Shown in pieces: positions 1 to 31,952 of a stretch of DNA of 64,000 nucleotides (its first letter is position 1; the number at the start of each line of letters is the position of its first letter). Source of the DNA: Rhizodiscina lignyota (Eukaryota); the NCBI GenBank assembly GCA_010015805.1, contig ML978126.1, forward strand, positions 806,001 to 870,000, written 5' to 3'. A program made the translations under genes and the position numbers. The notes beneath the pieces were generated by a model. The model saw nothing but the letters and a program-made list of their open reading frames with translations. It made no database searches and was not told where the DNA came from.

Positions 1-617
1 AAGCGGAACGACGTCGTGGGCACCCCGTACAAGTGCGCATAGCTGTGAGCCATCAGCTCCACTGATTTCTTCGTGGCTGCGTAGATGGTGAGCGGCTGGT
101 CTGCGCAGTCCGTCTCGCGAAACGGCACGGATTCGTTGGCGCCATAGATGGATGATGTGGACGCGAGCAGCAGGTGCCGGACGTCGAGCTCTTTGGCAAT
201 GTCGAGGACGTTCCACGACCCTTCGACGTTGGAGCTGAGGTAGGAACGAGGATTCTCAAGACTGAAGCGCACCCCCGCCTGCGCAGCCAAGTGCACAACG
301 ATATCGGGTTTGGCCTCTCGCATCGCAGTCTCAAGTTTCTCGCGGTTTTCCAGCAGCGCGATGATTGATTGGAAACGTGGATATCCCGACAGTACGGCAT
401 GTCGCATCTCCTTTAGTTTAACATTGTAGTAAGGTGTCATGCCATCGAAGCCTACAACATCGTGACCTTCCTCCAACAGGCGTCGCGCAAGATGGAATCC
501 AATGAAACCAGCAGTGCCAGTAATGAAATATCGCAATTTTACTATTGATCTGTCTTGCTTGTTCTCGGATAACGAATCTCGACGACTGCGCGGCTGCGCC
601 GATCCAGCTTCTTCCAT
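1..617 (-). CDS. UDP-glucuronate 4-epimerase (extended SDR, LspL/Uge type); 3' part lies outside the window
   Basis: Manual translation from the ATG at 617 gives MEEAGSA...[37 protein letters not shown]...[18 protein letters not shown]...[10 protein letters not shown]...[28 protein letters not shown]. The GxxGxx[10 protein letters not shown] and YxxxK motifs are intact and there is no stop or intron in 205 codons. A possible upstream GTGAGT..TAG intron lies at ~711-780. Confidence 0.9.
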
Positions 618-1554
618 GCTAGGGCGAGTCAATAACAGGCGTGCGAAGCTTCGACAACGAAGGAGAAATGATGTTGATGAAGGTTTAGCTTCCTCTATTG
701 TTGAGAATATCTAAAACGGAGAGGTATGGTCATTTTCATGATTGACACTCACAGAAAATCGCCTTCGATCTTTCACTCACTCAACCTCCTTCCTTTTGCA
801 CGAGACGCTTAACCAGACAGATTGCGACTTAGCTGATTCGAGCGTGGAATTTTACTCTGTCCAAAGTACCGGATGTATAGGGCGAACCACAGCCCATGAA
901 GTTTCATGTTCACGACGGCCACCCCATGATCTCGCGGGAACGACTGTAATGGGACTCAGCAGCCATCCCAACATCCCTAATTCCGTGCCACAACAGACCA
1001 AGAGATCCTGACCTGTACTGATCTAATCCGATTCCCGCAGACATTTGGTTTTGTGGTGAACGGTGGTGCAGGGAGATTGTCTCCGCCTCAACACAACCAA
1101 ACCACCAACCAACGCTCGTCGAATATAATTGAATAAGCAGCCGTTAAAGAAGGGTTCGAGTCCGACCAGATCGAATCAGGTCAGTTCTCCTCAGGTTACT
1201 ATTGTAGATTAACTAGTGGCGACCTCTGATTTGCGGCGATACGAACTGACTTTAATCATTAGTACACTTAGGTTTCTGCGTCTCTCCTTGGAAACCGACA
1301 AAGACGCGGCTTGCATCACTCAAATCGACGTACACGATGAAATCGAGACCATCCTTTCCATCAGGAGGCCGTACGACTGTAAAGTCCAATCCTTGGAGGG
1401 TTGCAGTACGACATCGCCAGCCTTCCCAGCTAGAGATTGTACAACTTCTCGACATTCCAAGATTATTATTAAAGAAGGCCGGGATGATATTCTGCTTTGC
1501 ACGCATTTTTGCTACGGCTCAGACCTAGCAATAATTCACCGTTACGATCCAAAG

Positions 1555-1933
1555 CAGAGCTGTGCTTGAACTAGTGTGGTTTGACTTCCAAGTGATTAGT
1601 TAGTTTGACTGTTAATTAGACAGCCCATTCGTTTGATTCCAATCCATTGATCAATCGAATCCGACCATACGATCTTTAAAATACTATAATTAGTTGTATC
1701 TCGAAGATTTGGCATAACGGGCACGGACGTTAATGCGCGATGTAATAAATAGCGCGTAGGTACCCTGGCATATGTCGATCTCTATTATCCTTTAATCCTC
1801 TATATTTAAATAATTAGGGCTAATAAATCCAATCAGCTTGATCCGGTAATAATCAAAGCAATCAATCAGACGCGTCGATCACTGAACAAAATCAACCAAA
1901 CGGTGCAAGCCGATTGGACTAAGCACAGCTTTA
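1555..1933. mobile_element. Possible degraded non-autonomous TIR element (hAT/MITE-like)
   Basis: AGCTGTGCTT (1558-1567) and AAGCACAGCT (1921-1930) are perfect inverted repeats. The interior is TpA-rich with CAATCAA/CAACCAA-type short motifs. No target-site duplication found. Confidence 0.3.
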
Positions 1934-2107
1934 GAGTGAAAAAACCATGCGAATTACTTGACGGAAAAGTCTGTCTCATCTACTAGCTATACAATATTTC
2001 GGGCCGATACAAAAACGACAGTAATGCTGGATCTAATTATGAAGTGACATGTATATGTAAACCTCCTTATCCTCACCCCTCCTGAACTGCTAGTGGCATG
2101 GACTTGC

Positions 2108-2908
2108 TCAACTGTTCGCTTGTATTGCGCTTTCGATAGCATAATTATTCTCTGCGGAGTCCTCCAAACACCAGATCGCAGCACTGGTCACACCCGACGC
2201 ATGCACACTCTCCCAGACGGTGAGGAGGTCCGGAAGTTGCAGGCCACGCGGTGACTGTGTGCTGGAAGCTATTCCCAGTCCAATCGTTCCATAAGTGACC
2301 CCATTCACAGTTAATAAGTTGCCAACTGATGCTAGGGCGTCTTCGTATCCCTGTATGTCATCGATTCCATCCGCGTACGCCTGGTAGTTGTAGCAACCCA
2401 GGAAGAAATTGGTCGACGTCCAGAGCTGCTGGTACTGGATATTCGTTGCCCCAAAGGGAGCACAAGACCACTGCGAATGCTCAACCATTTGTGTGATGAC
2501 CTGGGACATGCATCGAACGAAAGAGTCGTCGAGATTGTTCTCGTAATCGATGTCGAAGCCGGCCAGGCTGTAAGTAGACATCATATTCGTCAGCGAGGAG
2601 ACTGCATTGTTAATCCAAGCGCCCTCGTCGGCTGGCGCTTGCCAAGGAAAGTTGTCGCCTCCTCCGAGGCTGGCGTAGAATTTGCGGTTTGGATTCTCTT
2701 CCATCAATTGAGATATGTAGCCCGGCGTGATTTGTGAGTCCCAGACGGGCGTGAAGTTGCCATCGCGATTGAGGTCCCGGGCAAAGGCTAGACAAAAGAT
2801 GAAAGTGAAGTTTGAATCGGTGCTGACTGGGACAAGCTCGAGGTTTGGAGCTGGTCGGCCGCCTGGGAAGGCACCAACGTAAGCCGTGATTTGAGTCTGC
2901 GATCTCAT
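2108..2908 (-). CDS. GH18 chitinase-like protein, plant class IIIb/narbonin type, 266 aa, single exon
   Basis: Motifs YVGA, FIFCLAFARD..GNF.PVWD, ASLGG, WINNAVSSLT, LAGFDIDYE (DxDxE kept), APF and YNYQAYA follow the order seen in plant class IIIb chitinases. No signal peptide is evident. Confidence 0.85.
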   Translation of the reverse strand: MRSQTQITAYVGAFPGGRPAPNLELVPVSTDSNFTFIFCLAFARDLNRDGNFTPVWDSQITPGYISQLMEENPNRKFYASLGGGDNFPWQAPADEGAWINNAVSSLTNMMSTYSLAGFDIDYENNLDDSFVRCMSQVITQMVEHSQWSCAPFGATNIQYQQLWTSTNFFLGCYNYQAYADGIDDIQGYEDALASVGNLLTVNGVTYGTIGLGIASSTQSPRGLQLPDLLTVWESVHASGVTSAAIWCLEDSAENNYAIESAIQANS

Positions 2909-4428
2909 GATGTTGGCAATTGAAGAGTTTTGGAGTGATTAATGGGCAAGAAAATATCAGTACACATGGTTGAACAGATGGAGACGACATTTTATATCAC
3001 ATATTATTTCCGCCATGCCGCCTTGAGAAGATGTGCCGAAGTAGAGAGACTCACACGCAAGTTCGTATCTTTCGGCTATGGAGCTGAAAGTTGGCAACCG
3101 GTGGGAGGGCGGGCGTTGAAAGTTTGCGCAGATTAAATGAAAAGACACTCAGCTTAACGACGGCTCACTGTCGCTGAGTGGCAATGAGGCCGCCATAAGA
3201 AAGGGCATGCGATCATACTTCAGCGCATATGGTGTCTGTTCAGCTCCAGAAAGCGGAAGCAGGATCTCCAAAATATGAACGCGAAGGTAGGATGTAGGAA
3301 CTCCTGATTCTGTTCACGAGCGCATTCGGGCTCCTCCTCACGACAGACAGAGCGGTTCAAATCCGCACGTGCTGGTCATTTGTTCCGCACCCAGCTCACT
3401 GAGGCGCTTACCTACCGCTCATTCGAGTGCTCACCGACTGCTCTCCCAGCTCGCCCGCCTCTCTATAATGGTGCATTTCCGACCAGTTAGATCAAAGCGA
3501 AGAATGAGCAAGGTGAATGTAGACTGGTTAGAGAGAAGACCAATACAAACTACCCAATTTTCCACACTTTCCTCCCTCTCACTTGCGCTGGTGAACCTCA
3601 GCGTTGGGTAATTTATCCTAAGCTCTGACGACGTCGTAGCGGTGAAGTCCGAAGCTGAGCCGGGCTCGCCGTGAGCCCTAGGACTAGATAAAACTCCGAT
3701 ATTATGCCAGTTAGTTGATCATAGACGACACTGCAGATGGTTGACTGAGAACTGGGTCATTCTTAGGCAGTCACCGTTGTTCCAGCTGTCATATCAAGTC
3801 AGATTATTCTAATTTTTCATCCATAGCCCTTTTCAATGTCGTAATGAGAATCAAAGATGAGCTGGCTGGAGCCATTTTCGAAAATTTGAATAGAGAAGCT
3901 CTAAGACTAGGAAGAGCGAGGAGAAGGAGCTAATGATTACGCATTAGCAAGATCATAGACGTAGTGCACAGCCATTAAATAGTACAACAGGATAGCCGAA
4001 GAAAGGTTTTTAGCCAGTTAGCAGTCGCCCCCGGAGCTGAAACATCCGGATCTTCTAACAATGGTCAGGCCATGCTGGACCAGCGATCACTCCCATTTAC
4101 GTTCTGCTTCCTCCTCCCTGACATAAGCCCAATCTAAGGGATGATCCACAAAGGAGTAATTGGGTGAATATGGAATCATCTTGAATAGTTATCTTGTTCT
4201 TCACGATTCAGACAATGTTTGGTTCATCAATTCCAAATCTCAATTCCAGAAATATGTCTTCGATGAACGATGAGGTTGAAAAATGTATAAAACACGTCTC
4301 CTCTGTTAGGGTCGAACGGGCATTCATTCAAGCACCAAGCATCACTTCAGCCCAAGAATTCACCGCGATCAATAAAACCTTTCTCAAGACCCTTCCATTA
4401 GACGCTTGTCTTGTACTATCCACACATC

Positions 4429-5329: not shown

Positions 5330-7274
5330 TTAGATGATTTGAAAATTTCGAAGCTCTCCGCCGACTTGTGGCTCCCTTGGTAGACACAAATACCCATGCA
5401 CGTAGCAAGGGCCAATGAGACAATAGCCACCTTCCACTGCTCTCAGCAGGAACGGCATGTTCGAGCTGCCCCCCAAGAACACCACCAAGTCGTCCCTCTA
5501 TGCATTAGGAGGCGCAAGTACAAGGAGCGACTCTTCTGTTCTTGCTATCCTCCTGCCCACAGACGCGAGCCCAAGCGTCTGCTGGAGCCACGAGGAAATG
5601 TAGATGGCAGAAGTGACGTTCGATCCGCCGACGATATGGAGTGTTGGATAGGAGTGCGGATAGTACGAACCACGCTGCCATTGTCTGTTCAGGGTCTCAT
5701 CGTCCAAAACGGATGAGGTATCCGAGCCGCCGGAGTAGTTGGGGCATCGAACAGCCAGAGTGCTGAGGACCCCTTCCCAGAAGTGGTATGCAGAATGGGC
5801 GGGCGTCCTGCCTGTCCAGAGTTTGCCTGTCCAAAGTGTGGGTCCGTTAAAGCGGCGACGTAACTTCAGATCATCAGAGCGGCCATGAGAGAACAGGTTT
5901 GCCCATTCTCGGACAGTCTTTCCATCGGGTTCGGCTGCTGGTTTTGTCCATGCGGAGCTGACATGCTTAATCGAAGTGAGTATGCGGCCTTTGCAATTCA
6001 GAACCTTGTGGTCAGCACTGAAAGAGACTTGTATGGCCGGTAGCTTCTCTGCTGGTATGTGATATCTGCGGCTCCTCAGTATTGGTGAGAATATTGCTTT
6101 GAGGTCTCTCTGAGTAGTTAAGCGATTGAGAGGGAAAAGATGCTGACTTGTCCAGTCAGGCACCCACGACGGCAGGTCCTTAATAACAGTATCGCTTTCG
6201 ACGCAGGTCAACACATCCAGTGTGTTGGTCGCAAGAATGCATTGCACTGCAGCTCTGGTGAAGACGCTTGAGACATCCAGGTTGTAGTCGACGGTCAACA
6301 GCTGGCTCAGCTCTGCGCTTTGCAGTTCAGACTTTCGAATCCGTTCGTACAATGTTGGTCAGTGCAAACACATGGTCTCGTGGGTCCGTGGAGTCGTTAT
6401 GGCGGCCGTCCTGCAGAAGGTCCACAAAGGTGCTGTGCAGACGGACGGGCGGGTTCCACAGACGGGTGAGCCGCGTGGAGGTGCATGACATCCAATACCG
6501 CGTGAGGGTATTGAAGTTTGATCGGCCTCCATACGCTATGTAGATTGAGAAAAGGTTTTCTTGCGCTAACCACTGAGCGCTCTTGTTGTCTTCTTGGAGA
6601 GGCACTACTACCAAGGCTGTGGCTCGGCTCATGTGGAGTAGTTCCCAAGAGAGGGTTTGTCCGCGGTAGAAATATGTGATGGACTTGGCCATGGCGAATT
6701 CTTGAAGGATCCATGTCCTTGAGAACCATGGGTGCGCAAATAATTCTTGGAATGCAGAAAGCGTAGGTACGTCTGTATTCTTATCCTTGCGAAAGTTACC
6801 AATATCGATGAGGAGCCGCACGTAGTTCAAAGGCGTGCCAAGTGGCTCCGCGTCTTCGATGTCCAGGAAGACTATGGTTCTCGAAGCAATTTGATACAGC
6901 TTGTGCATCAGACGAACCTATTGGTTTCTCTCCGATACGTCATTTTGGTTTACACAAATCTGGTCGATCCATAGCCTTCTCGTGCGGTCTTTGAGACGAA
7001 AGGCCCGCAATGCTCGCTGCAAGCATGCAGTGATGCGTATCTCAGCGCCGTCACAGATGACAGCATGGCTCTTCTCCAAGTCGCCCCATGTATATGATAA
7101 GGCTTCAAACTTCGGATGGTCGGTGAAAGAGCAGTGGATGATGTTGCCAGAGAGTAGGGAAGCAGCTTCTCCGGGATGCACTTCAAGAAGCCGGATGTCG
7201 CCCTTTGCATCTGAGAACTGGTTTGGCGTATCCGAAGGAGTTGAAGCAAGTGGGTGGTATGTAGAAGGGTCCAT
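5330..7274 (-). pseudogene. HET-domain (PF06985, HET-6-like) gene disrupted by two in-frame TAGs and a frameshift or short intron
   Basis: All HET motifs occur in order: IRLL, FEALSYTWG, LWIDQICVNQ, ERNQ*VRLM (TAG 6920-6918), WFSRTWILQE, TDPRDHVFAL, VDY, LPSWVPDW, LAPPNA*RDDLVVFLGG (TAG 5500-5498), PFLLR, YCLIGPCYVHG, final TAA 5332-5330. There is a frame change near 6350-6302. Confidence 0.85.
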
Positions 7275-9192: not shown

Positions 9193-9931
9193 GTCTATCA
9201 AATCGTCGCGTCGCGAAAAAGAAGTCGAACGGCCTGCGATCGGGGTTAGCTAAAGGCATGCCTATATAGCGATGCGGCCCGTCCTGACGCTTGTGGACGA
9301 AAACCAAACAGAGGGCAGCACGGCCTCCAGGCGGATCGGGATGCTGGCAGACGGCGTGGCAAGGGGCCAGATGCGATCTAAGCACTGCGCTGGCTGGACC
9401 TCCTGTAATATCGCGGCCTGCGCCTTCGATCCTTCAAGCAACAACGCCACGAACAAACTCTTCAGCCTTATCCAACGCGCGCGTTGTGTCTCCTTTGGCT
9501 AAGATGAAGTTCGGCGGTGTTTCAGCGGCCTTCATCGTGGCCAAGTCTAGACCAACCTCATCTCTCCGCATCCTCTTGCACGCAAAGCCAAGCATTCTGG
9601 CTTGCTGTGAGGCTGAGACCGGAGAGTTAACGTTAAAGCATGTGGGGGCCAAAAGAATCAATGCTGGACGTAGCCCCGACCCAACGCATATTTCACTGGT
9701 GCTGTACGCTCATACACAGCTGGAACGTGTCCGCCTACGGAGCAGAGCGTGGTGTAACTTTCATCCGGTATTACCACCGTGTCTGCAATTTCAGGGCTCT
9801 GCGGAGCAGGCGCGCTATTGAGAAACTGTTGTGGTCGCGTGCAAATTGGTGGCGCAGCAACTAGCACATATTGTCTGAGCCTTCACAATCTCGAATGCCT
9901 CACCACTCACTCCATCGCGAGCGTGTGTGCC

Positions 9932-12043
9932 ATGGACCCTCCGTTGCCAGCTTATGTCTATCATCCGCTCAGGAAAGAGCGAGCGGAAATTCGGCTTCTA
10001 GAACTGCAGCCTGCGCCCGACCTACACCATCCTCTGCGGGGCACCGTCCGGCATAAAGCGCTCAGCGATGCGAAATTCAGCGCCCTTTCCTATACCTGGG
10101 GCGACCAGAAGGAGCATAGGTCAGACATTGAGATCACCTACAAGCACGGCAAGCTGGCCTCGGCTTTGGGAAAGATCTTCCATTCCAAGGCGCAACGGGA
10201 GGCTGAATCGACCGTCTACCGAAAGGATATTGGCAACAGTCTGGCAGCAGCGTTCAGGCATCTTCGCCAGAAGGACAGGCCAGTCACCGTATGGGCAGAC
10301 GCCTTGTGCATTAATCAAGATGACGAAAAAGAGAAATCATGGCAGGTTTCGCTCATGACACGAATATACTCGACATCTATCATGGTGCATACATGGCTTG
10401 GCCCACGCTACAACGAGAGCCCGACTGTAGTTGATGAAATTTCGTCTGCGTTCGCTTTCATTCGTTCCGTCGAACGTCAGGTGCATGCAAGTAGCAAATG
10501 GTCCCTCCTCGCTCACGACAGCTTATGGCTCAACGCCTGCTTTGCACTTGCGCAATCGAAGGTGTGGCACCACCAGGAACACGATGACGAGATAGAACGT
10601 CTCTGCGCTGGATTCGCAGTGGAAATGCGTAGCTCATTGCTTTCGGAGGGATCGTCTAAACGGTACCTTGGCGCTCTCAGGCTTTTATCCCAGATCGAAT
10701 ACTTCTCGCGAGTGTGGATCATACAAGAGGCTGGCAAAGCCCGCGATCTGACTTTCCATTATGGAAAACAGAGAGCGTCGCATAAGTTTGTTTTTCTCTC
10801 ATTATGCTTGGCAAAGGGATTCCTCGCTTCAAGGAGCTCGCTCGAGTCGCGCGAACTTTCAAAAGGGTTTGACTCGAGGTTTTATAGCTGTCTTACCGCA
10901 CGGCGACCCATGCCATTCACAACCGTCCTGCAGCTGGTGTACCTGTCACGGTCGGCCATGCAGCAAGCGACAAATCAACGGGATCTAATCTATGGACTCA
11001 TAGGGCTGGCCGAAGGGCGTGTTGCTATCGAGATCGACTACAGCCTCAGCGTCGAACAGGTGTACACATCAACGGCTCAAATGCTCCTCCGAGAAGGGTT
11101 TACAGACTTGTTGATTGCGTTCAAACCGTACAGTCCGCCTCATGCCTTTCCATCTTGGACTTACGATTGGTCGACGAGGGGGGCGTCGGCGTTCGACAAA
11201 TTCCAAGCTTGCGGGAATACAAAGCAGCAGATATCTTTTGTTCAGCTTCCGGGCTCTCAGCCCAAGCAGGCGATGAGGCTCGGAGGCAGTAGTGTCGGGC
11301 GCATAACTGCCACGGGCCGCCGATTCTCCACTCTAGCCCATGAAGCCGGGTTATCCGCTCAAATGATATGGTCTGGTACTAGGTACGATGAGCATGCACT
11401 GTCGGCGCAAGAGCAGGAGCGTCTCAGGGCGGAAATTGTTCGCGAACAGCGTCGACACCATAATGATGAGACCACCGCAGATGCTGGGGACCTCTTCAGT
11501 GATGTTACGTTTCCGGAGGCTTCATTCTGGCTCTGGTGGACGAAATGGGTGCTGGCGCTTGGGAATTTCTTCGAGGGGACTACACATCAAGAGGCCGACA
11601 GTGACGTATCAGAGGATGTCTTTGAATTGCTTCTGCGAATCGATCCTGCCCGCGGACGTGCTGACCCTTCGATTCCTCGCAGTGCTGGGCGAGCAAAGAA
11701 CTTCCCCGGGCTAACAGACATACGTACGTGGATCGATGCGAAATCCGGCGACCAGACAAGGAACCCTACGACTGCTTCAGCCATTGAAGGAATACTACGT
11801 CCCTACCGCTGGGCCTGGGGCATGCGACCAGTTATTCTGGACACGGGATATATCGGCTACGCCCCCGAGAACACTGAGGTTGACGACGAGATTGTGGTCT
11901 TCTCCAGAGTCAAAGCACCTTTAGTGATCAGAAAGGTGGACAGGCAAGCCCACAAAATCATCGGCCCGGCATACGTGAGCCGAGTGATGCAAGGGCAATT
12001 CTTGAGGACTATCCCGGGAGATCAGACTTTTACGTTGGTTTGA
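9932..12043 (+). CDS. Intact HET-domain protein (PF06985, HET-6-like), ~703 aa, single exon
   Basis: ATG 9932 (MDPPLPAYVYHPL), then EIRLLEL, FSALSYTWG, VWADALCINQ, EKSWQVSLM, YFSRVWIIQE, RDLIYGL, IDY, PSWTYDW and C-terminal IIGPAYV. Confidence 0.9.
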   Translation: MDPPLPAYVYHPLRKERAEIRLLELQPAPDLHHPLRGTVRHKALSDAKFSALSYTWGDQKEHRSDIEITYKHGKLASALGKIFHSKAQREAESTVYRKDIGNSLAAAFRHLRQKDRPVTVWADALCINQDDEKEKSWQVSLMTRIYSTSIMVHTWLGPRYNESPTVVDEISSAFAFIRSVERQVHASSKWSLLAHDSLWLNACFALAQSKVWHHQEHDDEIERLCAGFAVEMRSSLLSEGSSKRYLGALRLLSQIEYFSRVWIIQEAGKARDLTFHYGKQRASHKFVFLSLCLAKGFLASRSSLESRELSKGFDSRFYSCLTARRPMPFTTVLQLVYLSRSAMQQATNQRDLIYGLIGLAEGRVAIEIDYSLSVEQVYTSTAQMLLREGFTDLLIAFKPYSPPHAFPSWTYDWSTRGASAFDKFQACGNTKQQISFVQLPGSQPKQAMRLGGSSVGRITATGRRFSTLAHEAGLSAQMIWSGTRYDEHALSAQEQERLRAEIVREQRRHHNDETTADAGDLFSDVTFPEASFWLWWTKWVLALGNFFEGTTHQEADSDVSEDVFELLLRIDPARGRADPSIPRSAGRAKNFPGLTDIRTWIDAKSGDQTRNPTTASAIEGILRPYRWAWGMRPVILDTGYIGYAPENTEVDDEIVVFSRVKAPLVIRKVDRQAHKIIGPAYVSRVMQGQFLRTIPGDQTFTLV

Positions 12044-12846: not shown

Positions 12847-13868
12847 ATGGCGCCCCAATTAGCCTTCATGGGCCTGGGAAACATGGGCCGCGGCATGTGC
12901 AAGAACCTCGTGGAGAAGGGCAACCTGGACAAGCCGCTCATCCTCTGGAACCGCACGCAGAAGCGCGCCGACGACCTCGCAGCGACGCTCGGCACCAGCG
13001 GCGCCAAAGTCGCATCGACAATCCAGGACGCGGTGAAGCCCGCGGACATCATTTTCATCTGCGTCGGCGACGACAAGGCGGACCGCGAGACCGTCGACAC
13101 CATCACGTCGGTCAACGTCGACGGGAAGCTCATCGTCGACTGCTCGACGGTGCATCCCGACACGACGCTCGAGCTGGAGAGCACGCTGGCCGCGAAGGGC
13201 GCCGCGTTTGTTGCGATGCCTGTGTTCGGCGCGCCGGCCATGGCGGACGCGGGCCAGCTCATTTGCATCATGGCGGGTCCGAAGGACGCACTCGAGAGAG
13301 TGACGCCGTACTGCAAGGGTGTGATGGCCCGCGCCGAGATCAAGTTCCCCGACGAGCCGCAGTCCAAGGCGCCGCTGCTGAAGCTGATCGGGAACAGCAT
13401 GATTTTGCAGATGGTGGAGAGCATTGCGGAGGGGCTGACGCTGGCGGAGAAGAGTGGATTAGGGGCCGATCATTTGCACGAGTGGATTGGTCTGATGTGG
13501 CCTGGTGCGTATCCGGCGTACAGCCAGCGCATGATAAAGGGCGATTATTACAAGAGAGACGAGGTGCGTAATCTCTACTTACGTTTGATATAATGGATGC
13601 TGGAACGTGATTTACTGACCAGGTAGTGCAGCCATTGTTTGCAGTCGATCTGGCACGAAAGGATGCTGGTCACGTCCTTAAAATTGCAGATGATTCAGGC
13701 GCCAAGGTCAGAGCAGTCGAGCTGGTCGATCATCACCTGCTGATGGCGAAGAATTATGCGGGAACGAAAGGCGACTTGGCAGGCATGTATGGCGCAGTAC
13801 GACAGGAGGCAGGACTGGCATACGAGAACGATCCAGAGGACAAAGGAAAGGCCAAGGCTGAAAGTTGA
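12847..13868 (+). CDS. Beta-hydroxyacid dehydrogenase (3-hydroxyisobutyrate/6PGD-like NAD-binding family); 2 exons
   Basis: AFMGLGNMG, WNRT, DCSTVHP, PVFGAP and catalytic LKLIGN. Intron 13564-13631 (GTGCGT..CTGAC..CAG) gives DE-PLFAVDLARKDA. Confidence 0.9.
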
Positions 13869-15425: not shown

Positions 15426-17293
15426 TGTTGAAACAGGCTTCAGTACGGTAGAGAAGATATGTGAGAGCAATCAGACACTTATAGAGCTTGAAGCGAGTCG
15501 AGGGTCTCGGCAAAAAATGTAGAGGATGAAACGCCTACACAACGGCGGATCGGGAGCTGGGCTCTCATATATCCCCACGCTTCTATAGCATCATAACCGC
15601 CAGTCTCGAAAGAGGAGACATGCCGGACGAAAGAAGAAAGCTCCATGCTGACGGCTCCGCACGGCATGCTATGATGCCTCAACGCCAGCACGGTCAGTCC
15701 CACGCATAGTACTTGGCCTGCGATAACCATCCACAGCTTCACCGATGTGGAGTCCAGAGTCGGGCATAGCGATCAATTGGGCATATCAACAGGCAGGAAG
15801 CGTGCTTCAACTGCCCCACTGCCCGTGCCATAGCTCCCGGTAGCTCGCTCGGAAGCGCTTCAACGGTTCGAAATAGGAGCTTAGGGCATTGAAGATGCAT
15901 AACGCGGTAAAGCCAGAGATGGGTAGATGTGCAGGAGCCGCCCCAGACTGTCGGGGAGCTTTCTGGGGTCCAAGATGCGCTCGAGACACCGCCAATTGAA
16001 GACTTTTTTTCGCGCCTGCTTTTGGTGGAATTACAAGACGGAAACATGTGCAAGGCGTGGCGCTGACGAATTACGCGCAAGCGGAATGCAGCGCAATCTC
16101 TGGAGCTGCCACAGCTTGAAGCAGTTGAAGTGGTCTGCGTGTCATTCGATTAGAGTCTCCAGGACGGCTGGAAGGGGTTAGCACTGGAGTGACCGGATTG
16201 GCGGAAGGCTTGTCGCGGAGAAGGGGGTGCGGCGGTTTGAGGGAAGGTCGCGAACCAGGTGCGTCGATCTGCCAGCCATTCCGTTTTTGCGGGGAAGCAT
16301 GTCACGATGCTTAATTCCAGTTAATTGCCAGAGAACAGCTACGTCAGCGACTGGGAGAGCGGTGGATGCGGTCCCAGCAAGAGGAACGAAAGCCAGTTGG
16401 TGGTGAAAGAGGAGAAGATCCATGAGCCGAGAGGGGAAGTTTGAGACGCGACGAAATCGTTGATGAATATAGACGAACCTGGGAAAATCCGAGTCACGGG
16501 ATGCAGCACAATGCCCGGCCTATGCCCGTACGCGAAAGCACAGGCAACGAGAGTTTCTGCTCGGGCCAAGGGACCTTGTAGCTGGTGGTTGTTTAGGAAA
16601 GGTCAGAGAGGATCTGGACAGGAGCCACGAGGGCAGCATCCGACGCGAAGGGTCGGGGCATCGGGAGCCTGCAAGCCCAGCAAACAGAGCAAACAGAGCA
16701 AACTCGCGCTCCTTGGCGTGCAAAATCGCTCAGGAGTTTTGTCGGAGCCTGCGGATTTGGACTTCTTCATATACTCTCGACCGATCAGTAATGGGCCGAG
16801 GAGATATGGTCAGCATTATCTCTGCCTCCGCAGCCAGAATACTGTCGACTACTGATGTGGAAAGACTGTCCGTGCAATCGCAATCATCTGACGTACTTCA
16901 GAGCTTTGAATTCCCTCAAAGTGGAGAAATAACGCGCACGTTCAGCCAATCATCACACCGCCTTTTATCGACTTCAGCAAATTCGACCCTGAGGAGCCAA
17001 GTGTTATAGCGCAAACTTCTCACGCGACGCTTAATGTCCAATCCAGTCGTCCGAAAGACTTCCGGGATTCCGGGTTCTATTTGTCGTCAAAAAAGTATAT
17101 ACATCGAAGGTACGTCCAGATCTGTTTTGTGCGACCGCGCAGATCCGTGTTTCCCAAAAGATAAACTCCATGGTCACAGACCAAGGGTATATGTGAACCC
17201 AAACCGAATATAATGTACCTGTTCCAGACAAATGCTCTATTTTGACGCTACTGAAAGTCGTGCCTTCCTTATCACACCTGCAATGAGACTTCC

Positions 17294-19005
17294 TTAGTGA
17301 TGGTGCTGCCGACGACCGTCATGACGATCGTCCTTCTTCAGCATACCGAAGATCTTCGCCAACCACGCTTGGAAAAGGGCCCAGAAGTTGGGGTCCTTGC
17401 TGTCCGGCGGCGGAGGAGCAAGAGTGTGCGACGGCTTCGGTGGCGACTTTGTGCCGGTGGGCTTGTAGCTGCCAGGCTTCGTCGATGTGACAAAGCTAGT
17501 AGGCAGCGCGCTAGTTGTGACTGGTTCAACTGGAATAGAGATGCTCAAGTAGGATGAGAGTGGGACGGAATTTGAGGGGGCGCTTGATGGAGCCGTGATG
17601 GTCGCCGGCAGAGAGATTCCGCTGGGCAGCGATGAGATTGGGACTGGGATGATCGAGACCGTCGAATTGACAATGACGACGATTGAGGTTGTGCTAGCAC
17701 CCTCGAAAGAGCTGGTCACAGCCGGCGCAGTCACAATCGGGCTGACTGGAGTGCTAGCCGATCCCGTGCCAGACGGAGCGCCGTAAGACGGGAAGGTTGG
17801 GTATGAGACTGATGAGCTGCTGATGCCTGTAGCGGCAACAGACGTGCTCACACCAGCGACGGAGACTGATCCTGATCCGACTGGAAACGAGTAAGAGGGA
17901 ATTCCAGTTGGATACGAGGCAGGGGAACTGCTAACTCCGGTACCGGCAACGGAGCTGCTCACACTGGTGCCAATTGGGCCAACAGGAGTGCTACCAGTGC
18001 CGATTGGGATGCTGATGGAGCCAGATCCGATAGGGAAAGAGTATGAATAGCCTCCCGTGGGGTACGGCGGGTATGAACCACTGACTCCAGTACCAAGAGC
18101 CGAGCTGCTGACACTTGTGCTAATCGGTCCAACAGGAGTGCTTCCAGTGCCAATCACTGAGCTGCCCGAACCAGATCCAACTGGATACGGATAAGTCGGG
18201 TATCCTGTGGGATAAGACACAAAGGAGCCGCTCGGGCTGGTACCGATGGGGCCACCAGGAGTAGTGCCGGTACCAAGGGCGGAAGTGCTCACGCCCGCGC
18301 TGGATGAGGTTGGATGGGAAGGAGCAACTGAATAGGTGATTGAAAGGTTTGCGGAGCTGTATGGTCCTGTGGGAATGGTGTAGTATCCCGTACCAGTTGC
18401 ACTTGGTGCAGAAGCCCAGGACAGGGAGAAGGTGGGATATCCAGTTCCCAACCAAGTCGAAGAAGCTGGCGAGGGACTGACTGTTACAGTGGAAATGCTA
18501 ACAGGTGATACTTCAACACTGCTGGAGCTGCTCGACGACGAGGAGCCAGTGCCCACGGGGTATACAGGGTAGCTGACCGAGAGATTGGCAGAGTTGACTG
18601 GTCCCGTGGAGATGGTGGAGTAGATGCCAGAGCTGACAGCACTGCCTCCAGTTGAAATTGGTGCGACTGGTGTTGAGAATCCGGTCCCAGTCGAGATGGG
18701 TGCGACTGGTGTCGAGAATCCAGTCCCAGTAGAGATCGGAGCAACCACGGAGGACGGGGCTGTTACGATCGGGATGGAGCTTGAGATATATTTGTGCGTT
18801 CGTGTGTGCCAGTGGTGGCTATGTTCATGCTGGCCCTGGTTACCGTACCCATATTGAGGAACTATTGGCACTGTCAGTACATATTCAACAAGCGTGGAAA
18901 TATTATGTTTTTCAGTCTCAGGTCAACAATTCTACGTGTGTGTGTGCAAGTCTTACCTGCCAAAGCAGAGCCCAAGAGGCCGAGAAGAGTGATCGTCTGA
19001 AGCAT
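17294..19005 (-). CDS. Secreted Ser/Thr/Pro/Gly-rich repetitive cell-wall-type protein; 2 exons
   Basis: Exon 1 is MLQTITLLGLLGSALA (ATG 19005). An 86-nt intron at 18956-18871 joins it to the 525-codon ORF, which contains internal repeats. Confidence 0.85.
18650..18745 (-). repeat. 39-bp coding tandem repeat (PVAPISTGTGFST) x~2.5
   Basis: GGTGCGACTGGTGT(T/C)GAGAATCC(G/A)GTCCCAGT repeats at a 39-bp period. Confidence 0.8.
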
Positions 19006-20855
19006 TTTCGGCGTTGATAAAGGAATGAAATCGTCACAAAGGCTCAGGTACTGTGTCTTCGACTGTTCTTTTCAGGAAACGAATGGCTCTGCCAAAGGAG
19101 AGATGTGCACACACAGTGGCAAAGGTAATGAACGACTGCTCCCGAAATGGGAAACGACAAAGAGAACGACGGTGGGATGAAGAACGGAAAGGCGGTTGCA
19201 GAGCGGAAGAAGAGGAAGAAGAGCAAATAAAGGAAATCGCAAAGCCATGGAACGTAGGCATGGGTCCCTCATTTCGATGCCTTGGTTGAGAAACTAACCC
19301 AAACAGCGTCTCCTGGCGAGAAGATCCGCAGTCGTATGTGGCTTGCTGGCTTGTGTACCTGCATGTTAACCTTGACAGCTGTCTGGATCTCTGCGGGATG
19401 TGCCATCACATAATCCCGCGGCTGCGGTTAGAGATCATTGCAGGACAGAAAGGTGGGACTGGGCCAAGAGATAATGCTCGACATAGGAGGCTTCCGAGGC
19501 CAGCCGTGTCTGTACTGCAACCAATCCGGTACTCTTGCATCGGGTATCCATAGACGAAGAGAAGTCCTTCCGCTGCTTCTCAGACATCTCCTTGGCCAGT
19601 GACTGCTATTGACATCCGCTCAATTTAGCAATGGGAAGAGAAAAGTGCATTTTCTGTGCTGAGCATGTCTTTCCTCCGCTGTGACCTAGCACGTCAGCAC
19701 ACTCGGAAATTTTGTCGGTTGGCAGACGCCAGTAACGCCATGCAGGCCATTACCGCTGGGATGCATGGGATCTGAGCCACGGGCGCACCGATGCATGAGC
19801 CGCAGTCGAGGAAACAAATCGAGTGTTTCTTGGTGTGTTGGTCCGGGATTGGGAGGTTGTTTGGCAGATGAAAGGAGGTGTAGGTGCGTTTTAGGTTTCG
19901 GCGGGATGGCAGCGTGGTGGCGTCCAGGCCTGGAGCCAGTCATGGCGTGGGATGTGCCCGGCGATCTCTCTCGTCAAACACCGCCGGCGAGGGATTGGAG
20001 ATGACAGGCCCGTCGCCCCCAAAGCGTCTCTTCACGTTTGTTTCGACGACATGCTCATTACGAGAAACATCGGCAGAAAGTCCTACGCCTTCATGTTGCT
20101 TCTTGAGACTCCTCGAATGGGGTTTGCCATCCGAAAAGTGCCCAAAAATGATGTATCACGCTGGACAAGGAAGCCGATTCAGGAGTCCACGTCACCACGA
20201 TAATTGGCTTGACATGTGAAACGACCTCAAAGCTCCACCGGCATCCCGCGCGAGCGCCTCATCTCATTTTCGTTTGCGTCCCGATCGGAGCAGAATTTGG
20301 CGGCCAGCTTGTGCAAGTCGGATGTACTCACCGACTGTAGGCCCGACTCCTCGATCAGGAAAATGTGTCTACGCAATCGACGCTGATATGGTGTGATACC
20401 TGTGGCGAACGAGCATGCTGAGCCTTCGATCTATTTTCGACGACAGTGCAATTAACAGCTGAAGGAGGAGCTGAAAGTGGATCCAGGGTCAGCCAGCTAA
20501 GAAACTCCAAGTTCCTTGAGCGACGGTAAGAACCCAATCCCCAGATCCACGTGGAGGGCGGAGCTCACTCGGCATCTTCCACGGTGACCTTGACTTTGCC
20601 GCATGAAGATCGGCCAATTCATTTAGATTAATCAAAATTACTCCAGCTGGGTCATTTGAGTCATCTCCTTCCTTATCTCGACGCCGAGCCTCTTCGGTCT
20701 TTCATATCAGAAATGCCGACTTCCAACTCATCAGTAGAGTCCTTCTCAAGCATTCAGTGATTTGTTATCTCTCGACAAGCCTTTGTACGGCCGTTACTTT
20801 TCGTTTCCTCCCAGAACGCCTATCCCGAATGACTTTCAGGATGTAGAGACGTAAA

Positions 20856-23552
20856 TCAGATACCTCTCCAGGTACTCTTCTTCGATATCTCAAACTCTCC
20901 GATGAGCCCTCTCCCGTCATCGAAATCGCTGCTGCTCCCTACCCAAACGCCATACTTTCCCTTCTCCTCGACCCAGCTATCTTCTCTCTCATTCCAGTAG
21001 CTCGTAGCGTATTTTCTCTCAAGCAATATCTCCACATATTGCTCTTCAGCCGGTTGTAGAAAAGCCTTGCTAAAGCCCTTCAGCTCCCGCGGTGGCCGGC
21101 TCACACAATCAGACGTTGGCGCCGGACTCACGTATACCTGCACGACTTCTGCGCCAGCGATATTCCCCGTATTCTTGACCGCGACGCGGACAACAATGGT
21201 GTTTGGCTGCACACCAGTACCATTCTCCTTCACCATTTGGACCTTGAGATGATCCATGGAGAAAGTTGTGTATGATAATCCGTGGCCGAAGGGGAAGAGG
21301 ACCGCTTTCTTCAGTTTCTGATAGTATCGATATCCAACGTAGATGTCTTCGCCATACCACGTCCTTCCAGCCTCTGAACTTTGGTGCAAGAATGCTGGAT
21401 TGTCTTCGTTCCTGATCGGAAAGGACAGCGACAGCTTTCCTGACGGATTGACAGCGCCGAAAAGAATATCTGCAATAGCATTTCCCGTCTCGTTACCGCC
21501 ATACCAAGCCTGCAAGATAGCGGGGGCATTCTTTGCCCATGGCATGAAAACAGGTGTTCCAGACTGCTGAACGACGACAGTGTTCGGGTTAGCAGCACAG
21601 ATTGCATGGACAAGCCGATCCTGTTCGCCAGGGAGAAGCATATCAGCGCGGTCGTGTCCCTCGGATTCCCAGTCACTCTACTTGGCTGTCAGCACCACAA
21701 GCATGTCACACAGCCTCAAAGCACAGCATGGGCTTACATTTAACCCGATGCACAATACCACCTGATCCACGCCTTTTGCCAACTTGATGGCCCTCTGGAT
21801 CTCCTCTGATGCATCCATCACTTTCACAGCCCCAATTCTTAGGCCGCCACCCGGGAAATTGACGCCTGAAGATTGCACCTTCATTGTCGCTCTGCTGGCC
21901 CAGTCGATTCGGATTTTATGTGCTTTGCCTCCATGCAGCTTAACCCGGCCGATCTCCTCTGCAGTACCCATACCAAAGAAAGACGAACCTTTCCTTTGAA
22001 CAGTGTCGTTGTCTACGACCAGTTCTCCATCCACATAGAGCTTCGCAGTGCCGCATACAGACAATCCAAAATCGTATTCGCAGTCCGTGTCTGGCGTAAG
22101 GATGCCCTCGGCCGTGGCATACCACAGCGCTACATTCATTTCTGGGTGGAAGTAATCCACCATGAACCACACTCCATCAGTCTTGTACAACTCGTCGAAC
22201 GGTTTGCGCTTCTTGTCTGATGGGGGTTCATTGTAGGCCTTGAAGATCATGCCTTTTCTTCCGTCCCCAGTCATCAGTTGTGGTGCGAGTATTGGCAGTT
22301 CTTTGTGCGCGTACGCGCCTACAGTGTATTTCACGTCTTTCCCATATGCGTCGGATATGCCTTCGTACGGGGAAACGGCGTGGTAAGCTCGCAGTGACGC
22401 AGATCCACCTCCACAGTACGTTGTGGTCTTTGCGTTTGGACCGATGACTGCAAGCGTCTTGTTCTTCTTCAGTGGAAGGATATTGTTCTCATTCTTCAAG
22501 AGAACAATAGAGTCAGCGCTCACTTTGCGGAGCAGATCTGCTGTTTCAGGGGTGTTAACTGTTGATTCCGGGGCGTCTTCAGGGACGCCGCTGAGGCTGC
22601 AACGCTTCACTAGTCTCAGGACATTACGAACCCTCTCGTCTAGAGTCTTTCTCCGGACTTTCTGGACTCTGAGGGACGCAGAGAGGGTGGGGCCTCGCCA
22701 TACTGTTGGGCCAGGCATTTCGAGGTCGAGCCCAGCGTTGATGGCTTCCGCAGTTGAGTAGACGCCATACCTACGGAGCCGACATCAGTCTCGATATATG
22801 CCAGGTACGAAGAAGCGTACCAATCACTCATAATGAGACCATGCCAACCCCATTCCTCACGAAGAATGTCTGTCAGAATGCGCTTCGTCTCGCTAACATG
22901 CGTTCCGTTCAACCTATTGTACGCCGTCATAATACAAGAAGGCGAGCATTCTCTAATAGCCACTTGGAAGGCCATGAGATAAATCTCTCGTAGGGCACGT
23001 TCGGACACAATAGCGTCGACCAGATTTCTCTCGTGCTCCATGTCATTTGTCACGAAGTGTTTCAGTGTTGCGGCAATGCCATTCTCTTCCATCCCTCTGA
23101 GCAAAGCTCCTGCACCCTTTCCTGCGAGAACTGGGTCTTCAGAGATTGATTCAAAGCCCCTCCCGCCGAGCGGGCTCCGCTGCATGTTGATTGTGGGTCC
23201 TAAGATAACGTGTGCGCCTTTCGCTTTTGCTTCTCTGGCCATCAGGTCTCCACAGCGATGCAACAACTCCGTGTCCCAGGTAGCACCAAGTGCAGTACCA
23301 CATGGAAAGCAAGCAGCTGGCTCGCCATTGAAGAAATGTGTGCCTCGAACGCCATTTGGGCCATCGCTCAATCGAAGTGATGGAACTCCAAGTCGATGTA
23401 CAGGATTCGTATGCCAGAAATCCCGACCTGCGATTCGTCAATTGAAAATCCGATTTGAACGTAAGTATTCAGGGATGCGTACCTGCAAGAAGTGCTATCT
23501 TCTCAGCATCTTCGAGCTGCTCAAGCACAGCGTCAACATCAATATCTGCCAT
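20856..23552 (-). CDS. Intracellular GH3 beta-glucosidase with PA14 and Fn3-like domains; ~4 exons
   Basis: [10 protein letters not shown] start, then [27 protein letters not shown], nucleophile MSDW, PA14 insert, ESEGHDR and [10 protein letters not shown]. No signal peptide. Confidence 0.93.
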
Positions 23553-27661: not shown

Positions 27662-28150
27662 GGTTCTCGAGTTCAAGTTGAGGATTGATTGGGGAGTGAG
27701 GAATGAGGGAAGAGAGGTCGGGTGGTGAGTGGTTATAGAGGAGGGAAAAGTTGAAGAGGTCCCCGAGGTCCCCGCGTGGATGGCGCGTGGATGGCGAAAA
27801 GAAAGCGCGTACGATCTGGTGAGAATCTGTAATGCAACGCCGAGAATAGCCGCGTCTGGAAGTCGCGATCGCGTAAGATCAACGGACGGCCCCTGATATT
27901 CACCATTTTCGCTATAAGTGAGCAATGTCTCTTTGTTATAGAGCCTGGCTTTATTCAATTGGTATCACTGTGGTACATATATATAGAACTCGCACATCGA
28001 CGCCGCCAATGCCCCCAAGAGTGATAGGTATCGAGGCGGTTCCTGAATATCTGCAAATCCCAGAATCCCCAACCACAAGAGTCCACCAACCCCGTAACGA
28101 TGCAGAAAATTATTCAAGCAATATCGTTGGAACAACAAGAGCCAACACAA

Positions 28151-31100
28151 TTATTTCAGGTCTGCCGGCGTAAGGGCTTGTACAACGCTAGTACCGTCGC
28201 TAAACCTCGTCCGGAAGATGCGATTTGCATTCTGGAACATGCCGTCCTTCAAACTAACAACAATGAATTGCGACCCTTTGAAGCGAGTTTTGATCAATCG
28301 GCCGATATTTTGCGTATGGGACAGGTCCAGCGCGGCGTCGACTTCGTCGAGAATGTACATTGGCGCTGGTTTAAACTGGAGCAGCGCCATAATGAGCGAT
28401 AGGGCGATAAGTGATCTGCCAGCCAGTCAGTATTTGTTTTAGGATTTGATATACCAGACATACCTCTGCCCACCACTCAGTTCCGTCAAGCTCTGCTTCC
28501 ATACCTTACCCAAGCAAACCTTCACCTCTAGGCCCTCGCTGACGGTCCTTCCTTCCAACGGTACTAGCTTCGCAAAGCTTCCTGGAAGCAAATCGTTGAA
28601 GATCTGGCCAAAATCCGCGCTGACCTTTTCCCATGTCTTCTGCAGAGCCTCCTTCTTGTACTCGTCTAAGCTAACAATCGTCTCCTCGATCTTCTTCTTG
28701 TCTTTGATGACAGTTCTCATCATGTTTTTCAGTGACGCCTCTTTCTTCTCTACACCGTCGATCATGTTCATGACCTTTGGATTGATCTTCTTCTTCATGC
28801 CTTGGAAGCGCTCGGATAGGTTCTTGAGGCTGGACTTGCATTCTGCCATGTTTTGGCCCTTGAAGTCGTAAGGAGTACCCGCACGACCGAAGGATTCCGT
28901 TTCGTCAGCGATCCACTCATGCTCTTCTTCAAGTGCCTTGAGTGAGTGAGCAAACGTCTGCTGCTCCTTATCGAATTTCTCAATTTGGTGGCTAAGCTTC
29001 TGCTGCTCGAGGCCTTCTTCTGTTATTTGCTTCGACTTGCTGCTGCTGGCTTCTTCTAATGCGTGCAGCTCGTCGTCGAACCCACTGAGTTTCGCCTGCT
29101 CGTCCTCAAGGTTGGCTTGCGCACGGTCATGTGCCTTCTTTGCCGTGTCTTGCTCTCTGAGAAGCGCATCGATTTCCTCTTGCTGCGCTGCAAGCGTCGT
29201 TTCTGCATCCTCCAACTGTTCCTGTGCAGCAGACAGATCACTACCACACTGCTCAGACTCGACCATGGCATCCCGCATCTCTTGTTGCAAAGGCTTGATT
29301 GACGCCGAATTCTTCGATAGGTCTTTCTTCAATTTATCGAGCGACTTTTGCAATTCTGCAAGTTTGCTGTCCTTGTTGTTGGTGAACTCGCTCATCTCGC
29401 GCTCAATCCGCTTGACCTCTTTCGAAGCTTCTTCTTGTCGAGATTTGGCGTCGACGATACCTTGTTTTAGCTGGACAATGTCGACCTTCATTTGCTCTAC
29501 TGCTTGAATGATCTATATAATGTCAGCGAAGTATCTTTTTTCAAAAACGAGAAACTTACCGATGTCGAAGAGTTGCTGCTTATTTGATCTTCTGTAAGCT
29601 TGACTTCGTGTGTCTTCAGATCCAATTGCTGCTTAATCTTCTTTGCGCTTTCAAGTCGCTTCTGCTCTGCATTCATTGTGATCTGCAGAACCCTCAACGC
29701 ATTTTCTTGAGCATTCAGCTCTGTCATGATCTCATTCAGCTGCTGCAATGTCACAAGCACACCGCTAGACTGAGGAGCGCTGCCGCCTGAGAGTGTACCT
29801 GATGGGTCGTAGACATCGCCCTCAAGTGTGACGCTCTTCATCCTGACTGACGGGTCGAACGTGACTTTCTTCGCAGTCGCAGCATCTTCACATACAAGAG
29901 TCGAGCCAAATACATACTCCATGGCTGCTGTCACCTCATCATCGTATCCGATGAGAGAAAGAGCAAGGTCGACCTTTCCTGGCGCTAGCTTTTGCGCGGC
30001 ACCAATCTTTTCTGCCGATGCCCTGAATGCTGCGATCTTGTTTAATGGGATGATTGTCACTCGCTTCTTCAGCTTTCCATTTTGCAGCAGCTGAGTGCCA
30101 GTGTCTGCTGTATCGACAACAACGTTGTATAATCGACCCCCGGCACAGATCTCCAGGGCGGTGCCAGCTTTCGTATGCTCCTTTTGAAGTGTGAACAGTT
30201 GTGCAACAAGACCTTTTACCTTCGATCTATCAAAATTCGGCGACGGATCGTTATAGTTGAAATCGATGTTGGCCACCTTGCGCCGCAAGTTGTCAGCTTG
30301 CTCGCGTAGCTCTCGTATTCGGGTTTGAAGCTGTGTCTCTTTCTGATACATCTCCTCTTCCTTGCCAGGCTCAAAGCCAAGTTTCTTCAGATCCGATTCG
30401 AGTTTGCTAGCTTCCGAACGGAGCGCCTCGAGATCCTTCATCAAGCCGGAATTCTGCTCCTTCGCCTTCTTGGCCCGAGGCTCTTCCTCCTTGATACGCT
30501 TTTCAAGATGAGAGATTTTGAGCTTGGCCTGTTCCTGTTCGGTAGAAGCTGTGCTGGCGCGATTCTTCGCGTCTTGCAGCTGTCCCTGGTAGCCACTCTC
30601 TTGACCCTCTTTTGATGCGACACCTGTTTGGAGTGTCTGGAGCAGCTCTTCCTTCTTTTCGACCTCCTCGGTCTGTTTTTGGAGATCTCCATTGGCTGCA
30701 TCGTACTTTGCCTGGAGCTTCTCGTATAACTTGGTTTTCTCTTTCAGCTGTGCTTCAAGATCCTTGACTGTCTTTTGGGCTTTCGAGCGCTTTTCTTTCT
30801 CCTCGCCCAAACTCGTCTTCTTCAGGTCGATCACCGTGGTCAGCCGCACAATTTCATGGGAATGCGTTTTGACCTCCTCTTCAAGCGCCTGAAACTTGCC
30901 TCCTTTCTTGAGCTCTTTCTCTCTTGCAGCCTTGACCTTCTTTATGTCTTCCTGCAGGAAATTGATCTCGTTCTTCAGTCTTGTTGCACCATCTTCCAGC
31001 TCCTTCTGTCTTTCCCTCTTCTTCTCCAAATCGTCACTGGCGCTCCGGAGCTTCTCCCGGTATCGTATCCAGTCGTGTGCAACAACGAGCCTTGTGAGTC

Positions 31101-31952
31101 TCTCCAGATCACTCTGCGTCTGCTGAAAGTCCAGGAAAGCCCTCTTCTCAGCCCGCAGTTTTTCTAGCTTGGGATCGATCTCATCTTTCAATAGCTCTTG
31201 TATCTCTTGCAGCTTCATCTCTTTCTTGGCCATCGTCTTGAAGGCCTTGTCCCTTCTGTCCTCAAACATGCGAGTGCCAGCCGCCTCCTCAATCATCGCA
31301 AGAATCTCTTGTGGCTTCATATTTAGCACTTTTGTGATCCTCCCCTGCATGATCAGGAAGTTCGGGTTGTTGATATTAAGCTGCACAGACTGGAATAGGT
31401 TCTGGACGGTTTGTTGCTGGGCGCGGTGTCCATTTATGAGGTATTTGGAAGTGCCTCCGAGGACTATTTGACGAGTGACGGATATTTGGGCGTACTCTTC
31501 GAAACCGATGGGAGATTTAGACTTGTCTTTGTTGTCAAAAACGATTGTTACAGAGGCTTTCGTTACACCAGCTTGGCCGCGCTTGTAAATGAGGTCCTTT
31601 AAAGTCGATCAAGTTAGCTCGCGTCCAGTAATAAAGGATTGTAGTTATCGTGTGACTGACCTGAAGGTTTTGAGCGCGAACAGTGCTCATGTTCGTAATT
31701 CCGAGAACGAAACATATCGAGTCGAGGATATTCGATTTCCCGCTTCCATTCAAGCCGGTAATCGAGTTGAAGCTCTCGTCCCTACCATGCTGTGAGCCGT
31801 TGCTATGCCGAAGCTTCACTGTCGTCGACTCACCATCCTGATATGACCGTCCGGACGGCGTATGATTTGAAACCCTACAGAAGTTAAGCGGTTGACAGTG
31901 TGAAGCAATTCGGAAGTGAGCATACGTCGATAATAACCTCTATTACCCTCAT
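28151..31952 (-). CDS. smc2: Condensin subunit SMC2; multi-exon
   Basis: [18 protein letters not shown], Walker [27 protein letters not shown], hinge, LSGGQR signature and Walker [12 protein letters not shown]. Confidence 0.96.

Follow-up and report, generated by a model that had tools for sequence, protein, structure and literature searches.

The epimerase gene, its start codon and its active site

The left edge of the analysed DNA, a stretch of 64,000 nucleotides referred to here as the window, is occupied by the greater part of a UDP-glucuronate 4-epimerase gene. The gene lies on the minus strand at 1..617 and is read over 3-617: an open frame runs from an ATG at 617-615 to base 3, comprises 205 codons without a stop, and then passes the left window edge, beyond which the gene extends for about 480 bases. 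The complete product, P0122, has 365 amino acids, and the residues encoded within the window are identical to it at 205 of 205 positions. P0122 is colinear with 338-residue Rhizobium proteins from their Met to the C-terminus, with no gap of the kind that would mark an intron. A preliminary description of this DNA had pointed to an intron-free frame with intact catalytic motifs, and this is borne out both by the colinear 365-residue product and by the motifs GTAGFIG, STSS and YAATK, all of which are found in the window part. The same description had remarked that the gene is missing from the list of open reading frames. This is true, because the gene runs off the window; the frame appears only if open-ended reading frames are allowed.

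The ATG at 617-615 is the first in-frame ATG and opens a 27-codon N-terminal leader (537..617, minus strand). An in-frame stop is present 33 codons upstream, with no further in-frame ATG in between, while the next in-frame Met downstream is residue 60, which already lies past the nucleotide-binding motif. Only a start at the ATG at 617 therefore gives the whole enzyme. Its context has an A at -3 and a G at +4. The 27 residues of the leader (MEEAGS...SIVK) are hydrophilic and include no hydrophobic stretch. The leader is absent from the bacterial proteins, and the suggestion that it was newly acquired agrees with its having no counterpart in the bacterial homologues; likewise, no convincing likeness emerged when the leader and the DNA upstream of it were set against the 200 bases that precede nine bacterial genes. 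After the leader the frame reads TTG CGA TAT TTC ATT ACT GGC (L-R-Y-F-I-T-G), exactly as had been reported. The earlier observation is thereby confirmed as real, and it is correct in all checkable details.

The TTG that follows the leader (Leu28; 534..536, minus strand) occupies the position of the bacterial start codon. The preliminary description had read it as the ancestral start, a claim that stands in one part only: the TTG does align with the bacterial start, but the start of the donor type is ATG, which is found at this codon in nine of the nine nearest bacterial loci examined. TTG is present at the aligned codon in 2 of 80 bacterial loci (L064 and L080), both of them distant. Given the ATG in all nine nearest loci, the TTG is most simply a later A-to-T change and not the start of the donor. 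Such a single A-to-T change may have followed the appearance of a usable ATG upstream, or it may have come first, with selection then favouring the upstream ATG; less simply, the donor itself may have used TTG.

Residues 31-205, that is, those of the window part, match the Pfam Epimerase family PF01370 with an E value of 7.6e-37 and a score of 127 bits against a cut-off of 20.9, and this match and the motifs are far beyond chance. Its sequence marks the product as an extended-SDR UDP-glucuronate 4-epimerase, and as one of the rhizobial (lpsL) type. Among solved structures, the best relative is 5u4q (2.5e-113), followed by the Bacillus cereus UGAepi, or BcUGAepi (6zl6/6zla, 3.9e-41), MoeE5 (6kv9, 2.8e-33), a UDP-Glc 4-epimerase (7.7e-33) and WbgU (1.8e-32), so that UDP-glucose and UDP-GlcNAc epimerases rank behind BcUGAepi and MoeE5. 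The NCBIfam GalE and dehydratase models gave scores far below their cut-offs, and the NCBIfam matches included no equivalog for UDP-glucuronate 4-epimerase. The 5u4q entry, which carries the deposition title 'dTDP-glucose 4,6-dehydratase', is presumably an NAD-dependent epimerase of Klebsiella pneumoniae. It aligns almost gap-free over residues 28-357, although it is enterobacterial and, like the Erwiniaceae rows, falls outside the alphaproteobacterial part of the tree. BcUGAepi and MoeE5, which are biochemically and structurally characterised, are much more distant than 5u4q but have the Tyr/Lys pair, the Thr/Ser stretch and the arginine (Arg185, equivalent to R215) in common with the fungal protein, which differs from BcUGAepi by an insert of about 16 residues around 264-280.

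The residues expected of an active enzyme of this family are intact. The NAD-binding Gly-rich motif G-T-A-G-F-I-G is present at residues 34-40 (498..518, minus strand), and G34, G37 and G40 fall in invariant columns. The stretch S153-T154-S155-S156 (150..161, minus strand), in which S153, S155 and S156 are invariant, corresponds to S125-T126-S127-S128 of BcUGAepi, which we take to contain the catalytic Thr and the Ser/Thr network round the substrate carboxylate. The SDR YxxxK is found as Y179-A-A-T-K183 (69..83, minus strand), with Y179 and K183 invariant; its equivalent, Y149/K153 of BcUGAepi, is presumably the catalytic YxxxK of that enzyme. R215, the column of which is also invariant, aligns with Arg185 of BcUGAepi. 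In that enzyme Arg185 holds the carboxylate of UDP-GalA and a Thr/Ser network, mentioned without residue numbers in the available part of the source, holds that of UDP-GlcA (PMC12338863). Across 107 bacterial rows there are 57 invariant and 36 near-invariant columns, and the fungal protein keeps 57 of the 57 and 36 of the 36. This conservation suggests that the fungal protein would convert UDP-GlcA to UDP-GalA and back.

Relatives and phylogenetic position

The closest relatives of the protein are bacterial and come from a narrow group. The best 120 proteins of 112-359 amino acids are 69-76% identical over the window part, and the names among them are Rhizobium, Agrobacterium, Oryzifoliimicrobium and Peteryoungia, with no others; over the full length, identity to the Rhizobium, Agrobacterium and Peteryoungia proteins is 69-73%. 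Among the best 120 proteins of at least 360 amino acids, P0122 alone is closer than 69%, and the few names present are all bacterial. No fungal name is found among these best 240 matches (120 of 112-359 amino acids and 120 of at least 360), a set of which the first half would leave out fungal proteins that are both shorter than 360 amino acids and less than about 69% identical. In a scan of one genome per prokaryote species the best match is 69% (Rhizobium altiplani), in a scan of metagenome contigs it is 68%, and in the ESM Atlas the rows among the matches listed are 96-100% Bacteria. When ten proteins with long N-termini were picked from the best 150 matches of a search of 1.84 billion representatives and then named, three were eukaryotic (from a plant, an alga and an ichthyosporean), two were bacterial or metagenomic, five were nameless and none was fungal. 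The likeness to rhizobial epimerases that had been noted at the outset is accordingly upheld, the best matches being Rhizobium proteins with 70-76% identity over the window part; the gene name, however, is lpsL and not 'LspL' in the available part of the literature source (PMC8227245).

As described in the same part of that source, LpsL of Sinorhizobium, from the rkp-2 region, is a UDP-glucuronate 4-epimerase that supplies GalA for LPS, and its gene adjoins the UDP-glucose dehydrogenase gene rkpK (PMC8227245). LpsL and its Rhizobium and Agrobacterium orthologues belong to the same family as the fungal protein and are its closest sequences (69-73%), colinear with it from the bacterial Met to the C-terminus. 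The rkpK-lpsL gene pair was also seen in the bacterial loci fetched here: among 80 loci, 36 have a UDP-glucose dehydrogenase relative within the flank that was fetched. Eight of the 36 relatives are only 24-33% identical to the Rhizobium one, and in one locus (L007) the relative lies directly upstream of the epimerase gene. The fungal copy differs from these in its location in a fungal chromosome, in the absence of an upstream dehydrogenase gene, in the TTG at the start, in the 27-residue leader and in its host-like codons. The epimerase gene is common on large plasmids or chromids of Rhizobium, Agrobacterium and Sinorhizobium, and several copies are annotated beside a UDP-glucose/GDP-mannose dehydrogenase. 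Plasmid matches comprise at least 25 records at 60-80%, the best of them on Rhizobium and Agrobacterium plasmids of 0.2-1.2 Mb. In Rhizobiaceae, plasmids or chromids of 0.2-2.6 Mb are a frequent location of the pair of epimerase and UDP-glucose dehydrogenase genes.

Two maximum-likelihood trees were built. A quick tree of 108 rows held the query, 79 of the 80 loci (L075 was dropped for its short match) and 28 proteins picked from the best 240; in it the query falls within a 25-row Rhizobiaceae set with an SH-aLRT of 98. A careful tree of 50 rows held 47 rows chosen from the 108 together with a plant, a charophyte and an ichthyosporean GAE, so that its eukaryotic GAEs are all from outside the fungi. 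Here the query falls at 99/99 within a 14-row set of the Rhizobium/Agrobacterium group and Peteryoungia, and at 99/97 within an 18-row set that is surrounded by other Hyphomicrobiales and then by other Alphaproteobacteria. The three eukaryotic GAEs form a separate clade (99/99), and an AU test rejected a single clade of the query and the eukaryotic GAEs (delta lnL 60.9, p 5e-7), a group that was named after the tree had been seen. The placement of the query inside the 14-row set is poorly supported (53/36), and its end branch is long (0.46-0.53). A tree set against bacterial and plant GAE sequences, as the preliminary description had proposed, puts the query inside Rhizobiaceae with the plant GAE apart, and the transfer from Alphaproteobacteria suggested there is in keeping with this 99/99 nesting and with the bacterial taxonomy around it. 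A bacterial ancestry of the gene, with a donor in or near the Rhizobium/Agrobacterium group, is well supported by these trees.

The eukaryote-type GAEs (plant GAE1-6 and the charophyte and ichthyosporean proteins) have the SDR fold in common with the fungal protein and are predicted to carry out the same reaction. They are longer, however, at 452-549 amino acids; their N-termini are extended by 63 to 176 residues, hydrophobic stretches among them, and they are only 43-45% identical to the fungal protein, from which they stand apart as a clade of their own.

Residence in the fungal genome and proposed origin

The genes recognised by Pfam in the window include two HET genes, a Fungal_trans gene, SMC, HAUS6, MSH3 and an intron-split GH3 gene, and for the products of the epimerase gene and of MSH3 the recorded contig has one and the same length, 2,163,113 bases. 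A search of public sequencing runs for this stretch listed a single run and no RNA run. Re-assembly of that run gave a contig of 3,948 bases that covers window positions 1-3200 with 0 differences, with no joint or loose end and at a word depth of 151, and that overshoots this span by 188 and 560 bases at its two ends. This run is probably the source of the assembly itself, and the result consequently speaks for a consistent assembly and is not independent support. The gene is physically joined to fungal DNA, as had been supposed, and no chimeric join is seen: a single re-assembled contig reaches from the gene across the spacer and the gene that follows. The spacer, which lies upstream of the gene (618..2107), is 1.5 kb long, has 44% G+C and is presumed to be the fungal promoter region; no relic of a bacterial upstream dehydrogenase gene was found in it.

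Compared with the nine bacterial genes, the fungal gene is 63-69% identical in nucleotides and 19-36% identical at four-fold third positions, and synonymous sites are saturated. The codon fit per codon is -1.200 with the host table, as against -1.251 and -1.243 with bacterial tables; the difference is weak, and the codon choice of the gene lies inside the range of host genes. Because synonymous sites are saturated, codon use is host-like and the re-assembly is seamless, contamination or a chimeric join is unlikely. Base composition was dropped as a proof of amelioration, since the low-G+C Rhizobiales genes of loci L002 and L005 match the fungal value: G+C is 0.546 in the epimerase gene and 0.544 and 0.553 in these two, and GC3 is likewise equal. 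Both loci are labelled 'Rhizobiales bacterium', and the GC3 of their epimerase genes, 0.62-0.66, is unusually low for the group. As for the host, the MSH3 of the window is at most 78% identical to a Logan protein and at most 70% identical to that of any named species (Dothideomycetes, lichen-forming fungi and other Pezizomycotina). With a host that has no close sequenced relative, the absence of fungal orthologues of the epimerase is weak evidence on the timing of the transfer.

The gene is very probably of bacterial origin and now resident in the chromosome of a filamentous ascomycete, having come from the Rhizobium/Agrobacterium group, gained a new start and a leader, and probably still encoding a working epimerase. 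The donor would have been a member or close kin of this group, in which the lpsL-type gene usually follows a UDP-glucose dehydrogenase gene directly, in many cases on a large plasmid or chromid. In the fungus, the epimerase alone is seen. With the former bacterial start turned into TTG, translation must start 27 codons further upstream, at an ATG with a good eukaryotic context, and the gene is presumably expressed from there. The leader so added would be short and hydrophilic, without a membrane anchor or signal-like stretch. The product is predicted from sequence to be a soluble, cytosolic, NAD-bound UDP-glucuronate 4-epimerase. It would interconvert UDP-GlcA and UDP-GalA by oxidation at C4, rotation of the 4-keto intermediate and re-reduction, and it would require UDP-GlcA as its substrate.

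Could the gene instead have come down by vertical descent from an old fungal or eukaryotic GAE lineage, its likeness to Rhizobium being a matter of conservation or an artefact of the tree? The long end branch of the query would fit such a history, as would the sparse distribution of GAE genes reported for ascomycetes in the available part of PMC8092308, the sequences of which lie outside the trees built here. However, an identity of 69-73% to Rhizobiaceae as against 43-45% to the plant, charophyte and ichthyosporean GAEs is hard to reconcile with it. So are the nesting in Rhizobiaceae at 99/99, with other Hyphomicrobiales and then Alphaproteobacteria around, and the outcome of the AU test against a clade with the eukaryotic GAEs (p 5e-7). 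Furthermore, the gene has no intron, its product has no N-terminal membrane anchor like that of the eukaryotic rows, and no fungal name occurs among the best 240 matches. Vertical descent from eukaryote-type GAEs is largely refuted, and the explanation as a whole is highly improbable. An assembly error that joined bacterial contaminant DNA to fungal DNA is scarcely credible. It would explain an intron-free gene that is most like those of soil bacteria, some Rhizobiales do have an equal G+C (L002 0.544 and L005 0.553, as against 0.546), and the sole run with this stretch is probably the assembly's own source. Yet in the re-assembly a single contig, free of differences, joints and loose ends, takes in the gene, the AT-richer spacer of 1.5 kb and the gene beyond it, and the stretch lies on a 2.16 Mb contig with fungal genes. 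The bacterial start is gone, and the frame stays open as far as another ATG upstream, the context of which is of the eukaryotic type; upstream, where bacteria have a dehydrogenase gene, neither that nor another bacterial gene is present; and none of the bacteria and metagenome contigs sampled comes closer than 69%.

An improbable but less far-fetched explanation accepts the transfer and holds that the gene is by now a relic, silent or in decay, that serves no purpose in the fungus. The long end branch can be read in this way, as can the failure to find partner genes (a dehydrogenase or a glycosyltransferase) in the 64 kb to the right. A relic would not, however, be expected to have an intact frame of 365 codons, or to keep all of the invariant and near-invariant columns, 93 of 93, when its branch has gathered about 0.5 changes per site. 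The usable ATG in good context that replaces the lost start, and the host-like codon use, also speak against a relic.

Bacteria of the Rhizobium/Agrobacterium group are known to pass DNA to eukaryotes, and transfers of single metabolic genes from bacteria to filamentous fungi are well documented. An event of this kind is therefore not new, but this instance is unusually clean: the donor group is narrow, the repair of the start codon can still be seen, and the active site is fully conserved. A literature search, judged by titles and abstracts, found no report of a bacterium-derived UDP-glucuronate 4-epimerase gene in a fungus. In the available part of a kingdom-wide survey of 491 fungi, UDP-GalA is predicted 'sparsely', mainly in entomopathogenic Hypocreales, and UDP-GlcA synthesis is predicted in most ascomycete lineages, inconsistently in some classes; horizontal transfer is one explanation that its authors raise for the patchy ascomycete GAE genes (PMC8092308; Schwerdt et al., mBio 2021). 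The statement that UDP-GalA is not a standard ascomycete precursor is accordingly right as to its rarity but goes too far if taken to mean that it is unheard of, given these sparse predictions in the available text, mainly for Hypocreales (PMC8092308). The ascomycete GAEs of that survey, as far as the available text describes them, are a precedent for patchy UDP-GalA synthesis genes in Ascomycota; they differ from the gene described here in that no fungal name occurs among the best 240 matches, and they lie outside the trees built here. They are probably less than about 60-69% identical to P0122. Their absence from the best 240 matches suggests separate origins, and they may stem from separate events.

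A bolder and rather doubtful proposal is that an isolated ascomycete lineage took up a plasmid- or chromid-borne lpsL-type gene and so gained UDP-GalA for a galacturonate-containing wall or extracellular glycan undescribed in its relatives. The transfer would then perhaps have taken place within a long-standing association between the fungus and Rhizobiales, and genes to the left of the window might take part in glycan synthesis. The epimerase concerns UDP-GalA, a nucleotide sugar that is predicted in few ascomycetes in the available part of the kingdom-wide survey (PMC8092308). If the enzyme is active, the fungus would be able to make an acidic sugar donor that is foreign to most of its relatives, with a bearing on the chemistry of its wall or exopolysaccharide and on the origin of patchy sugar pathways in fungi.

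Other genes of the window

The preliminary description had also raised the possibility of a galacturonate-glycan cluster that would extend to the left of the window and end with the epimerase gene. In the first 20 kb of the window no glycan cluster is seen. A tblastn search for UDP-glucose dehydrogenase found none in the 64 kb to the right of the gene, and Pfam scans revealed no glycosyltransferase either among the ORFs of at least 110 amino acids of the first 20 kb or among 19 larger ORFs from across the window. A transferred block of several genes was considered and rejected: for the neighbour at 2108-2908 no close relative turned up in bacteria, and the best match of the ORF at 12847-13593 is 29%.

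The first of these, the next gene upstream of the epimerase (2108-2908, minus strand), encodes a 266-residue protein that, although it has no Pfam match at E 0.001, is a small GH18-like TIM barrel. Its best solved relative is the fern 'Chitinase A' 4rl3 (7.6e-19); further solved relatives are 3sim, a class III chitinase and narbonin. Its structure matches in the Atlas are plant and bacterial GH18 clusters, with no fungal one, and the genome scan gave no close bacterial relative. The ORF at 12847-13593 (plus strand) is 6-phosphogluconate-dehydrogenase-like, of the NAD_binding_2 type. Its GC3 is 0.84, where the window's other genes have 0.49-0.63, and in codon use it is closer to the bacterial than to the host table; with a best match of only 29% in the prokaryote scan, it is no obvious second transfer.

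The two HET-domain genes lie at most 12 kb from the epimerase gene, at 5498-6917 (minus strand) and 9779-12043 (plus strand). In the former, the HET C-terminal match falls in an ORF at 6327-6917, beside an unassigned ORF at 5498-6358. Further to the right, the GH3 gene (20856-22718, minus strand) is of the beta-glucosidase type, with a PA14 insert and an Fn3-like domain, and occupies at least two ORFs (20856-21641 and 21678-22718) that an intron presumably separates. With respect to base composition along the window, the two strands are locally asymmetric: GC skew reaches +0.13 to +0.18 over 16-20 kb (16001-20000), and AT skew is -0.17 to -0.26 over 28-32 kb (28001-32000), the region of the SMC-hinge gene.
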